Positions 30,013-34,206 of a stretch of 64,000 bases of DNA are shown one piece after another (position 1 is the stretch's first letter; each line of letters begins with the position of its first letter). The DNA comes from Escherichia coli (lineage in GTDB: Bacteria; Pseudomonadota; Gammaproteobacteria; Enterobacterales; Enterobacteriaceae), in NCBI RefSeq assembly GCF_024223415.1, contig NZ_CP100501.1. One strand, 5' to 3'. Both the position numbers and the translations under genes were made by a program. Below the pieces are notes generated by a model that was given only the letters and a program-made list of their open reading frames with translations, ran no database searches and was not told the DNA's origin.

Positions 30013-30372
30013 TCTACAAAAATAAATTTTAATATTTAAATACGGCAATATATTTTATCATGTATTGCCGTCTTGGCGTATTCTTTCCGTTCCATTCAAT
30101 TGCATCTGGCATAACAAGAGAAATAGTAGACTCCTCATTACTGCTGTTGTATAACTGCGCACCATAATCTGCTAGACTGGCCCCCTGAATCTCCAGACAA
30201 CCAGTATCACTTATTTAAGTGATAGTCTTAATACTAGTTTTTAGACTAGTCATTGGAGAGCAGATGATTGATGTCTTAGGGTAAGCGTACAGCCTGAACC
30301 GTCTGGTCAGAATCTGACGAATTAGACAAAGTGGTGTCCACCAAATAAGTAGTGGGAACCAAAGTGTCAGAT

Positions 30373-30753
30373 ATGCAGAAAAATGTGACTCCCGGCAGGC
30401 GAAAAGGCTGCCCTAATTATCCTCCCGAATTTAAACAGCAGCTCGTTGCTGCCTCCTGTGAACCCGGGATATCCATCTCAAAACTTGCTCTTGAAAATGG
30501 CATTAACGCCAATCTGTTGTTCAAATGGCGACAACAATGGCGCGAGGGAAAGCTGCTATTACCTTCTTCAGAGAGCCCCCAGCTACTTCCTGTGACTCTC
30601 GATGCAGCTGCCGAACAGCCAGAATCGCTCGCAGAGGACCCGGAAACCCTCAGTATCAGCTGTGAGGTAACGTTCCGGCACGGGACGCTCCGCTTCAATG
30701 GCAATGTCAGCGAAAAGCTCCTGACTCTGCTGATACAGGAACTGAAGCGATGA
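30373..30753 (+). CDS. IS66-family TnpA (orf1)
   Basis: About 127 aa, typical IS66 first ORF. Confidence 0.8.
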   Translation: MQKNVTPGRRKGCPNYPPEFKQQLVAASCEPGISISKLALENGINANLLFKWRQQWREGKLLLPSSESPQLLPVTLDAAAEQPESLAEDPETLSISCEVTFRHGTLRFNGNVSEKLLTLLIQELKR

Positions 30754-31097
30754 TCCCTTTACCTTCCGGGACCAAAATTTGGCTGGTTGCCGGTATCACC
30801 GATATGAGAAATGGCTTCAACGGCCTGGCTGCGAAAGTACAGACGGCGCTGAAAGACGATCCCATGTCCGGCCATGTTTTCATTTTCCGGGGCCGCAGCG
30901 GCAGTCAGGTTAAACTGCTGTGGTCCACCGGTGACGGACTGTGCCTCCTGACCAAACGGCTGGAGCGTGGGCGCTTCGCCTGGCCGTCAGCCCGTGATGG
31001 CAAAGTGTTCCTTACACAGGCGCAGCTGGCGATGCTGCTGGAAGGTATCGACTGGCGACAGCCTAAGCGGCTGCTGACCTCCCTGACCATGCTGTAA
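30750..31097 (+). CDS. IS66-family TnpB (orf2)
   Basis: 115 aa; overlaps tnpA stop. Confidence 0.85.
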
Positions 31098-31146
31098 ATC
31101 TCTTTATCCTGGTTGTCACAGAATAAGCCCGGTAAAATACGGGCTT

Positions 31147-32685
31147 ATGAACGACATCTCTTCTGACGACATCTTCCTGCTGAAACAGCGCCTGGCCGAA
31201 CAGGAAGCGCTGATCCACGCCCTGCAGGAAAAGCTGAGCAACCGGGAGCGCGAAATAGACCATCTGCAGGCGCAGCTGGATAAACTCCGCCGGATGAACT
31301 TCGGCAGTCGTTCCGAAAAAGTCTCCCGCCGTATCGCACAAATGGAAGCCGATCTGAACCAGCTTCAGAAAGAGAGCGATACGCTGACTGGTAGGGTGTA
31401 TGACCCGGCAGTACAGCGTCCGTTGCGTCAGACCCGCATCCGTAAGCCGTTCCCTGAATCACTACCCCGTGACGAAAAGCGACTGTTGCCTGCGGCGCCG
31501 TGCTGCCCGAACTGCGGCGGTTCACTGAGCTATCTGGGCGAGGATACCGCCGAACAGCTGGAGTTGATGCGTAGCGCCTTCCGGGTTATCCGGACGGTAC
31601 GGGAAAAACATGCCTGTACTCAGTGCGATGCCATCGTGCAGGCACCTGCACCTTCGCGGCCCATCGAGCGGGGTATCGCCGGACCGGGGCTGCTGGCCCG
31701 CGTGCTGACCTCGAAGTATGCAGAGCACACCCCGCTGTATCGCCAGTCAGAAATATACGGCCGGCAAGGTGTGGAGCTGAGCCGTTCACTGCTGTCGGGC
31801 TGGGTGGATGCATGCTGCCGGCTGCTGTCTCCGCTGGAAGAGGCGCTTCATGGCTATGTCATGACTGACGGCAAACTCCATGCCGATGATACCCCGGTCC
31901 AGGTACTGATGCCGGGTAATAAGAAGACGAAGACCGGGCGGTTGTGGGCGTATGTTCGTGATGACCGCAATGCCGGGTCAGCGTTGGCACCTGCAGTGTG
32001 GTTCGCTTACAGCCCGGACAGAAAAGGCATCCATCCGCAGACTCATCTTGCTTGCTTCAGCGGTGTGCTGCAAGCGGATGCGTACGCCGGGTTCAACGAG
32101 CTGTATCGCAATGGTGGGATAACGGAAGCTGCCTGCTGGGCTCATGCCCGCCGAAAGATCCACGATGTGCACGTCCGCATCCCGTCAGCACTGACGGAAG
32201 AAGCCCTGGAGCAGATCGGTCAGTTGTACGCCATAGAGGCGGATATAAGGGGAATGCCGGCAGAGCAGCGGCTTGCTGAACGTCAGCGAAAAACGAAACC
32301 GCTGTTGAAATCCCTGGAAAGCTGGTTGCGTGAAAAGATGAAGACCCTGTCGCGACACTCAGAGTTGGCGAAGGCGTTCGCGTACGCACTTAACCAGTGG
32401 CCGGCACTGACGTACTATGCGAACGATGGCTGGGTGGAAATCGACAACAACATCGCTGAAAATGCCCTGCGGGCGGTAAGTCTGGGTCGTAAAAACTTCC
32501 TGTTCTTCGGCTCTGGCCATGGTGGTGAGCGGGGAGCGCTACTGTACAGCCTGATAGGGACGTGCAAACTGAATGACGTGGATCCAGAAAGCTACCTTCG
32601 CCATGTGCTTGGCGTCATAGCAGACTGGCCGGTCAACCGGGTCAGCGAACTGCTTCCGTGGCGCATAGCACTGCCAGCTGAATAA
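31147..32685 (+). CDS. IS66-family transposase TnpC
   Basis: 512 aa; N-terminal leucine zipper, CxxC..CxxC zinc-finger-like motifs, DDE region. Confidence 0.85.
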
Positions 32686-33036
32686 CACATCCCCGTCAAT
32701 ACGGCCCTCGCTGTACGCTCACGTCTTAGGACCGGAGAAACGCAGACGGCGTACCACACAGGAAAAGATCGCAATTGTTCAGCAGAGCTTTGAACCGGGG
32801 ATGACGGTCTCCCTCGTTGCCCGGCAACATGGTGTAGCAGCCAGCCAGTTATTTCTCTGGCGTAAGCAATACCAGGAAGGAAGTCTTACTGCTGTCGCCG
32901 CCGGAGAACAGGTTGTTCCTGCCTCTGAACTTGCTGCCGCCATGAAGCAGATTAAAGAACTCCAGCGCCTGCTCGGCAAGAAAACGATGGAAAATGAACT
33001 CCTCAAAGAAGCCGTTGAATATGGACGGGCAAAAAA

Positions 33037-33942
33037 GTGGATAGCGCACGCGCCCTTATTGCCCGGGGATGGGGAGTAAGCTTAGTCAGCCGTTGTCTCC
33101 GGGTGTCGCGTGCGCAGTTGCACGTCATTCTCAGACGAACCGATGACTGGATGGATGGCCGCCGCAGTCGTCACACTGATGATACGGATGTGCTTCTCCG
33201 TATACACCATGTTATCGGAGAGCTGCCCACGTATGGTTATCGTCGGGTATGGGCGCTGCTTCGCAGACAGGCAGAACTTGATGGTATGCCTGCGATCAAT
33301 GCCAAACGTGTTTACCGGATCATGCGCCAGAATGCGCTGTTGCTTGAGCGAAAACCTGCTGTACCGCCATCGAAACGGGCACATACAGGCAGAGTGGCTG
33401 TGAAAGAAAGTAATCAGCGATGGTGCTCTGACGGGTTCGAGTTCCGCTGTGATAACGGAGAAAAACTGCGAGTCACGTTCGCGCTGGACTGCTGTGACCG
33501 TGAGGCACTGTACTGGGCGGTCACTACGGGCGGCTTCGACAGTGAAACAGTACAGGACGTCATGCTGGGAGCGGTTGAACGCCGCTTCGGCAACGAGCTT
33601 CCGGCGTCTCCAGTAGAGTGGCTGACGGATAATGGTTCATGCTACCGGGCTAATGAAACACGGCAGTTTGCCCGGATGTTGGGGCTTGAACCGAAGAGCA
33701 CGGCGGTGCGGAGTCCGGAGAGTAACGGCATAGCAGAGAGCTTCGTGAAAACGATAAAGCGTGACTACATCAGTGTCATGCCCAAACCAGACGGGTTAAC
33801 GGCAGCAAAGAACCTTGCAGAGGCGTTCGAGCATTATAACGAATGGCATCCGCATAGTGCACTGGGTTATCGCTCGCCACGGGAATATCTACGGCAGCAA
33901 GCCAGTAATGGGTTAAGTGATAACAGGTGTCTGGAAATATAG
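33037..33942 (+). CDS. insD: IS2 InsD (OrfB), full length
   Basis: 301 aa, IS3-family integrase core. Confidence 0.9.
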
Positions 33943-34206
33943 GGGCAAATCCAAAAAATACTTAGGAATAATTTATGTAAAACAGGTTGTCGTCTTCATG
34001 ATTTAAACGCAGTACATATATATACTCTATAATAAATACAGGGAGTATCACGAGACGTCTGGATAAGAGGAATAACCAGAATAAATTGGTAAGGAATAAA
34101 GACACTTATTTCTATTGAGAAAAAACATTTATCCTGATGTGATTAGTATCAATGAAATAATGTGCTTGTATGGTTGATAAAAATGCATCACTAAAGAAAA
34201 AACAGT

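Follow-up and report, generated by a model that had tools for sequence, protein, structure and literature searches.

A stretch of 64,000 nucleotides from the Escherichia coli contig NZ_CP100501.1 (assembly GCF_024223415.1), referred to here as the window, carries one insertion sequence (IS) inside another, and the question it raises is how the two elements came together and how the nested pair acquired its present surroundings. The outer element is a 1331-bp IS2 at 30173-33953 and the inner one, at 30281-32722, is a 2442-bp ISEc8 of the IS66 family which interrupts it. The full explanation that we favour, and in which we place high confidence, is that ISEc8 became nested in IS2, that the structure has been inherited, that the IS2 was inactivated, and that a rearrangement took place later beside it.

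The boundaries of both elements could be placed to the base. The left terminus of IS2 is at 30173 (TAGACTGGCCCCC...) and its right terminus at 33953 (...GGGGCAAATCCA). The first 108 bp (30173-30280, plus strand) hold the left inverted repeat, at about 30173-30214, and the start of insC at 30264, and are colinear with positions 1-108 of uninterrupted IS2; the remaining 1223 bp (32731-33953, plus strand) hold the rest of insC, which runs to 33079, and the right inverted repeat at about 33913-33953. Abutting the two ends of ISEc8 is a perfect 8-bp target duplication, GTCTTAGG, with its left copy at 30273-30280 and its right copy at 32723-32730, both on the plus strand. A match of all eight bases at two preset positions has a chance of 1/65,536, and GTCTTAGG occurs just once more in the window, at the corresponding place in another, truncated IS2 (6293, minus strand). 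Deletion in silico of 30281-32730, that is, of ISEc8 and one repeat, restores an IS2 of 1331 bp (108 + 1223). Compared with the uninterrupted pMADE-3 copy it has four differences, and it aligns colinearly with the uninterrupted IS2 found in pEc673-2 and in pSCZP1. The base that follows the right repeat, 32731 (IS2 position 109), is A, where the IS2 reference sequence has G. Both pMADE-3 and pSCZP1 share this A in their uninterrupted IS2, as does the truncated IS2 of the window, so it is an allele and no mutation of the junction, and the duplication is exactly 8 bp long. An earlier reading made from the letters of the window alone (the sequence-only reading) had described a 2442-bp IS66-family element within an IS2 at 30173-33953, with an 8-bp duplicated target on both sides, and both statements hold to the base, the repeat matching at eight of eight positions. 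The sequence itself shows that ISEc8 transposed directly into a resident IS2 and left its duplication intact.

It might be argued that the repeat is a coincidence, or that unrelated IS fragments were joined into a chimera during assembly, as IS-rich regions are prone to misassembly and ISEc8 and IS2 are often adjacent without being nested. However the two parts of IS2 are exactly contiguous, the repeat is complete and lies at the element ends, and the same structure was assembled independently in 25 genomes. The probability of a chance repeat or a chimera is accordingly negligible.

The inner element can be named from its ends, its proteins and its identity to annotated copies. ISEc8 has the same orientation as IS2 (plus strand) and is bounded by terminal inverted repeats with 22-nt arms at 30281-30302 and 32701-32722 (GTAAGCGTACAGC.../...GCTGTACGCTCAC), which start GTAAGCG; terminal inverted repeats of the IS66 family are about 20-30 bp long and begin with this motif. 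It encodes three proteins, all on the plus strand and in intact reading frames. These are TnpA (30373-30753, 126 residues), a helix-turn-helix accessory protein matching PF01527, and NF047595 with 97.7 bits against a cut-off of 74; TnpB (30750-31097, 115 residues), the IS66 Orf2 accessory protein, matching PF05717 with 131 bits, and NF033819; and TnpC (31147-32685, 512 residues), the DDE transposase, matching PF03050 with 357 bits and NF033517 with 457 bits. TnpC also carries the IS66 zinc-finger, leucine-zipper and C-terminal domains (PF13005, PF13007 and PF13817), and all three proteins exceed the curated NCBIfam cut-offs. In its length of 2442 bp, its tnpA-tnpB-tnpC order, its GTAAGCG repeats and its 8-bp target duplication the element is like the ISEc8 of O157:H7 genomes and pO157-type plasmids; the coordinates of its proteins agree with those of WP_001171554, WP_000612591 and WP_000997962, with the tnpA coordinates coinciding with the coding sequence WP_001171554.1 in the plasmids pAPEC-O1-ColBM and pGF60-A. 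It is at least 99% identical to copies that the Prokaryotic Genome Annotation Pipeline (PGAP) names ISEc8, and 99.3% identical to the O157:H7 copies labelled 'ISEc8 family'. Matches covering at least 80% of the element are present in 3244 of 5426 complete E. coli genomes.

A single base, at 32720, separates the ISEc8 of the window from that of pGF60-A. At this position, the third from the right terminus, the window has C, whereas pAPEC-O1-ColBM and pGF60-A both have T. The C makes the terminal repeat imperfect (GTGAGCG against GTAAGCG), with 12 of the 13 terminal bases matching, compared with 13 of 13 for the T of the sister plasmids. The ISEc8 in the chromosome of strain GF60 is 100% identical to the window copy, and the C variant at 32720 is therefore not unique.

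The consequences for the outer element follow from the position of the break. IS2 of the IS3 family is recognisable in the nested copy by its 1331 bp after excision of ISEc8, by its left and right inverted repeats, which are imperfect (32-nt arms, 78% complementary), and by orfA and orfB with an A6G site for -1 frameshifting, which is intact at 33031-33037 (plus strand). The insD/orfB frame that follows (33037-33942, plus strand) reaches 708.9 bits with NF006918, the model for the IS2 transposase TnpB, which has a cut-off of 597. The nested copy differs from IS2 in that orfA is split at codon 6, in the A at position 109, and in being without a flanking 5-bp duplication. The sequence-only reading was right that insC is interrupted, but the break is two bases into codon 6 and not after the fifth codon as it had said. 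As ISEc8 begins with GTAA, the stub reads ATG ATT GAT GTC TTA GGG TAA and stops after codon 6, so that the residual frame formed by the insC start and the ISEc8 terminus (30264-30284, plus strand) would be translated as MIDVLG followed by the stop. Beyond the break, the earliest ATG, GTG or TTG in the insC frame is at 32801, with none before codon 30, and a product initiated there would be without its first 29 residues, including part of the DNA-binding motif. ISEc8 would thus separate the start codon of IS2, and presumably its promoter too, from the rest of insC/insCD. In a consensus-only scan, which is a weak one, there was no sigma-70-like match for a promoter that might read out of the right end of ISEc8 into the truncated insC, or for a consensus promoter in the left end of IS2. 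With no start before codon 30, we infer that the nested IS2 would be unable to make full-length OrfA or OrfAB and would be non-autonomous, with both of its ends intact.

Whether the insertion took place in this plasmid or was inherited by it can be judged from its distribution. Searches of the plasmids in PLSDB and of the 5,426 complete E. coli genomes recovered the identical junction, in a single aligned piece, from seven PLSDB plasmids and from 25 of the genomes. All of the carriers are plasmids of 155-207 kb and of the pAPEC-O1-ColBM type. They come mostly from poultry, pAPEC-O1-ColBM itself being from a turkey, but also from swine, seawater and humans, and Switzerland is among the countries represented. 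Wherever its surroundings were examined, the nested element lies upstream of the same gene for a 1165-residue autotransporter, which in the window occupies 34207-37704 and starts 253 bp past the right end of IS2. Over its 3781 bases the nested element has five differences from that of pGF60-A (NZ_CP172186.1) and seven from that of pAPEC-O1-ColBM (NC_009837.1, 77896-81676). Both plasmids share with the window the junctions, the 8-bp repeat, an identity of at least 99.8%, and a right flank in which the autotransporter gene is followed by a cluster of ATP-binding cassette (ABC) transporter and major facilitator superfamily (MFS) genes.

A private and recent insertion of ISEc8 in this plasmid would be in keeping with the perfect 8-bp repeat and the intact ISEc8 frames, and with the presence of a wholly identical ISEc8 in the chromosome of the related strain GF60. 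It is effectively refuted by the 25 complete genomes, pAPEC-O1-ColBM among them, which have the identical junction and right context, since independent events at the same base and in the same orientation beside the same autotransporter gene are not credible. We regard it as having scarcely any probability. The shared junction shows instead that ISEc8 inserted once, in an ancestor of the pAPEC-O1-ColBM-type IncF lineage that carries the autotransporter locus, and that the insertion has been inherited since. The 'direct and probably recent transposition' of the sequence-only reading is therefore fully upheld as direct, and only in part as recent. Recent applies loosely, in that the repeat is perfect, the three ISEc8 frames are intact and the copies differ by at most 0.2%, and it does not apply to the recent history of this plasmid. 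To judge from the shared sequence, it is true only insofar as decay has not yet touched the scar, and the junction is best regarded as an inherited marker of the lineage. All the elements concerned are of well-described families, and the nested structure is already in public records with its genes annotated, and in this respect is ordinary; no paper describing it was found in the literature searched.

It had also been proposed that related plasmids be checked for the uninterrupted IS2, and this gave support of a qualified kind. A clean empty site, with the vapB-side flank, an uninterrupted IS2 and the autotransporter gene, was not found in the complete E. coli genomes; in pCUVET17-1418.1, the nearest match to such a site, IS2 is at another position. 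Plasmid pEc673-2 has an uninterrupted IS2 of the right-hand allele with an identical right junction, but its left flank differs and contains a Tn3 remnant. The only record that matches the synthetic pre-insertion sequence from end to end is pSCZP1 (NZ_CP051220.1), in which an uninterrupted but frameshifted IS2 of 1330 bp (3601-4930 of the extracted locus) has both flanks of the window. This IS2 is a mosaic of two alleles. Its positions 32-406 are those of the allele linked to cytochrome b562 and those from 446 onward belong to the allele linked to the autotransporter, so that the crossover lies between 406 and 446, and ISEc8 is present with IS2 sequence elsewhere on pSCZP1. For this reason pSCZP1 was ruled out as the ancestral empty site. 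As its allele pattern shows, its IS2 is the product of homologous recombination between two IS2 copies, an event that would itself remove ISEc8.

Plasmid pMADE-3 was rejected as an empty site as well, because its IS2 is a separate insertion about 190 bp downstream with a GTATC duplication of its own. That IS2 (3198-4528 of the extracted locus) occupies the equivalent of window positions 34150-34154, nearer the autotransporter gene, and is a near-identical allele with the four differences given above; just upstream, IS30 has truncated the original IS2, of which a remnant is left. Such a proper, GTATC-flanked insertion implies that this IS2 allele has been transpositionally active at the autotransporter locus. 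The other plasmids with an uninterrupted IS2 beside the autotransporter gene give the same three-piece match as pMADE-3 and thus do not represent the same site. The idea that the 5' end of IS2 is a hot spot for ISEc8 was also considered and rejected, the other multi-piece matches being mere adjacency or breaking at IS2 position 1060, with no recurrence. In CP027598.1 (1001-4498 of the extracted locus), IS2 breaks off at position 1060 and gives way at once to ISEc8, with no further IS2 beyond it, which is an independent association of the two elements.

These comparisons also bear on the possibility that the 3781-bp IS2::ISEc8 unit moved to its present position as a whole, with an IS2 transposase acting in trans on the intact ends. 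Both IS2 ends are indeed intact, and IS2 transposase is plentiful in E. coli, most genomes having IS2 matches. However there is no 5-bp duplication around the unit, the uninterrupted IS2 in pEc673-2 has an identical right junction (AAAAATACTTAG), and a second genomic context for the nested unit was not found in PLSDB or the complete E. coli genomes, all of which makes its mobilisation as a unit highly improbable.

The right flank of the nested element is that of the lineage, but the left flank is not. In pAPEC-O1-ColBM and pGF60-A the IS2 is preceded by the vapBC side (...TTCCTCATCGTG), whereas in the window it is preceded by the cytochrome b562 side and TCTGC. Alignment with pGF60-A shows that window 1-6406 corresponds to 1-6408 of that plasmid in the same orientation, that window 6406-30280 corresponds to 30168-6295 in inverted orientation, and that from window 30173 and pGF60-A 39530 onward the two again run in the same orientation. 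The inverted segment measures 23.8 kb (window 6406-30167, from pGF60-A 30168 down to 6408; 99.6% identity by BLAST, reverse strand). The intervening 30169-39529 of pGF60-A, about 9.4 kb with an acyltransferase gene, ISCro1, IS1A, vapBC and others, has no counterpart in the window. The left flank of the window joined to the ISEc8 junction was absent from both collections, PLSDB and the complete E. coli genomes. An apparent third kind of left flank in pGF60-A, with 'ATCTGC' seemingly common to all flanks, was traced by direct reading to an artefact of BLAST end extension.

Two further elements in the window are involved in this difference. One is the truncated second IS2 (5325-6400, minus strand), which comprises positions 1-1076 of an allele 3.9% divergent from the nested copy and whose left end lies beside the target of the rearrangement. 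The other is an ISEc48-like element (6406-7741, minus strand), a member of the IS3 family related to IS2, of 1336 bp and with both reading frames intact, which has its right end at 6406. Its identity is 95.1% to an element that PGAP assigns to the ISEc48 family and 69% to IS2, and its OrfB scores 418 bits against NF006918, below the IS2 cut-off of 597. In pGF60-A, TCTGC occurs once, as CACCATAA-TCTGC-left end of the truncated IS2, while AAATCG comes after the right end of the ISEc48-like element (...GGGGTCAAGAACA) and CATCGTG before the nested IS2. Two new junctions take their place in the window. In the first (J1), the sequence is ...GGGGTCAAGAACA-TCTGC-left end of the truncated IS2, reading ...GAACA-TCTGC, with the pentamer appearing as its inverse, GCAGA, at 6401-6405 of the plus strand between the truncated IS2 left end and the ISEc48-like right end. 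In the second (J2), it is CACCATAA-TCTGC-left end of the nested IS2, with TCTGC at 30168-30172 (plus strand) abutting that end. Both new junctions thus lie exactly at IS termini, and the 5-bp target is duplicated in inverted orientation.

Inverted copies of TCTGC at exact termini, together with loss of the DNA between, are the expected product of intramolecular integration by paired ends. At a later time, and only in the plasmid of the window, the left end of the disabled IS2 may have come together with the right end of the ISEc48-like element, which faced it, the two acting as the ends of one very large transposon with the loss of the 9.4 kb between them. The pair would then have integrated intramolecularly into TCTGC, right where the truncated IS2 has its left end, giving the 23.8-kb inversion and the inverted 5-bp target copies. 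The pathway would be the two-step copy-out/paste-in one described for IS2, IS911 and IS30, and the transposase would presumably have been supplied by the ISEc48-like element, which is intact, or by IS2 copies at other places in the cell. We infer from the junctions that the left flank arose by IS3-family intramolecular transposition using the disabled IS2 left end. In its complete form, in which an ISEc48-like right end and an ISEc8-inactivated IS2 left end some 9.4 kb apart were paired and integrated beside a third IS end, with 23.8 kb inverted and 9.4 kb deleted in one transposition cycle, the reading is one that we consider probable.

There are parallels for such an event. With IS30, junctions between distant copies yield inversions and deletions, and the element prefers to insert beside inverted repeats (PMC9333248). 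The window is like the intramolecular rearrangements of IS30, IS911 and IS2 (PMC9333248, PMC3299598) in its facing right and left ends, its lost spacer, its target beside another IS end, and a target duplication of the length proper to the family (5 bp for IS2) which is inverted around the inverted segment. It differs from them in that the ends belong to two elements of 69% identity, one disrupted by ISEc8, which would have lain about 9.4 kb apart in the presumed ancestor. The ends themselves are alike. The left ends of the ISEc48-like element and IS2 agree in 21 of the 23 bases from position 5 to 27, and their terminal repeats are similar. Elsewhere, in NZ_CP122860.1, NZ_CP027548.1 and nine more genomes, an ISEc48-like right end abuts an IS2 left end with a spacer of 2 bp (AT) or 1 bp (G), representing at least two independent events; in the two named records this is at about 2600 of the extracted locus. 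Circle junctions of IS2 have spacers of these lengths. A spacer of 1-2 bp, asymmetric ends of which the right is donor and the left recipient, and a 5-bp direct repeat have been described for IS2 (PMC3299598). The abutted ends suggest either recurrent end-targeting or the formation of hybrid junctions between the two elements, and they support an affinity between those ends.

The truncated IS2 lies in inverted orientation to the nested one, and the cytochrome b562 flank could have been placed beside the nested IS2 by RecA-type recombination between inverted IS2 copies. IS2 copies in this plasmid family do recombine, as the mosaic of pSCZP1 with its crossover at 406-446 demonstrates. In addition, both IS2 copies of the window have T, G and T at positions 889, 916 and 954 (33511, 33538 and 33576 in the nested copy), whereas both copies in pGF60-A have C, A and G, so that these alleles are shared within a plasmid and differ between plasmids; this fits gene conversion between the copies, as may the identity of the two window alleles over positions 796-1075. 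Recombination between the inverted copies, however, would invert the whole 33 kb, retain the 9.4 kb and put the vapB-side flank (CACGATG...) beside the truncated IS2. What is seen instead is the exact right terminus of the ISEc48-like element and a second TCTGC, with the 9.4 kb gone. Furthermore the homology free of markers is only 31 bp, and the alleles at positions 32, 42 and 43 have not been swapped. Homologous recombination is accordingly an unlikely source of the left flank, and transposition by paired ends remains the reading that we prefer.

At positions 42-43 of IS2 (30214-30215) there is a hairpin which reads ATCACTTATTTAAGTGAT (TT) in the nested copy and ATCACTTAAATAAGTGAT (AA) in the truncated one. 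As the two are exact reverse complements, the hairpin loop has been flipped between the alleles. The truncated IS2 is also fused in frame to the C-terminal part of a gene for an ABC-transporter ATP-binding protein (reading frame 4850-5986), and its equivalent in pGF60-A is annotated by PGAP as a frameshifted IS3-family transposase. At the beginning of the window, 1-873 holds an IncFII-type repA at the same coordinates as in pGF60-A, and the start of the window is probably position 1 of an IncF plasmid record.

Several points weigh against this account of the locus. Without a clean empty site, the state before the insertion of ISEc8 is a reconstruction and not an observation. No 5-bp duplication surrounds the IS2 itself, either in the window, where it is flanked by TCTGC and AAAAA, or in the ancestral arrangement, where pGF60-A and pAPEC-O1-ColBM have TCGTG and AAAAA; this argues against a simple, undisturbed insertion of IS2, but not against its identity as IS2. 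The model for the left flank assumes an ancestor like pGF60-A, and the spacer of the real ancestor may have been different. Recognition of the IS2 left end by the ISEc48-like transposase is putative. Finally, an inversion misassembled between inverted IS2 repeats may be compatible with the sequence alone, although the 5-bp duplication and the loss of 9.4 kb are not what misassembly would create.

What this study adds to the sequence-only reading, which had missed the lack of a 5-bp duplication around IS2, the second IS2 in the window and the origin of the left flank in a later rearrangement, is modest, and consists of the status of the junction as a lineage marker, the warning given by a recombinant 'empty site', and the rearrangement itself. 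The nested insertion is a minor matter, as IncF virulence plasmids often carry scars of one IS in another and the present scar has been public since pAPEC-O1-ColBM. The IS2::ISEc8 junction is nonetheless a clean marker of single origin for one sublineage of poultry-associated IncF plasmids. The case of pSCZP1, which has both flanks and an uninterrupted IS and yet is a recombinant and not an ancestor, calls for caution in reasoning from empty sites. Inactivation has not made the IS2 inert. Both its ends and the homology within it appear to have taken part in gene conversion and in homologous recombination, as in pSCZP1, and most likely also in a transposition-type inversion and deletion which reshuffled about 33 kb beside the autotransporter gene and the iron-uptake region. 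That a neighbouring IS may use the left end of a disrupted IS2 to bring about a large inversion and deletion is, on the evidence of these junctions, a well-supported proposal. If it is true, 'dead' nested ISs would still drive the restructuring of plasmids in cis, and related ISs would share their ends in the wild.

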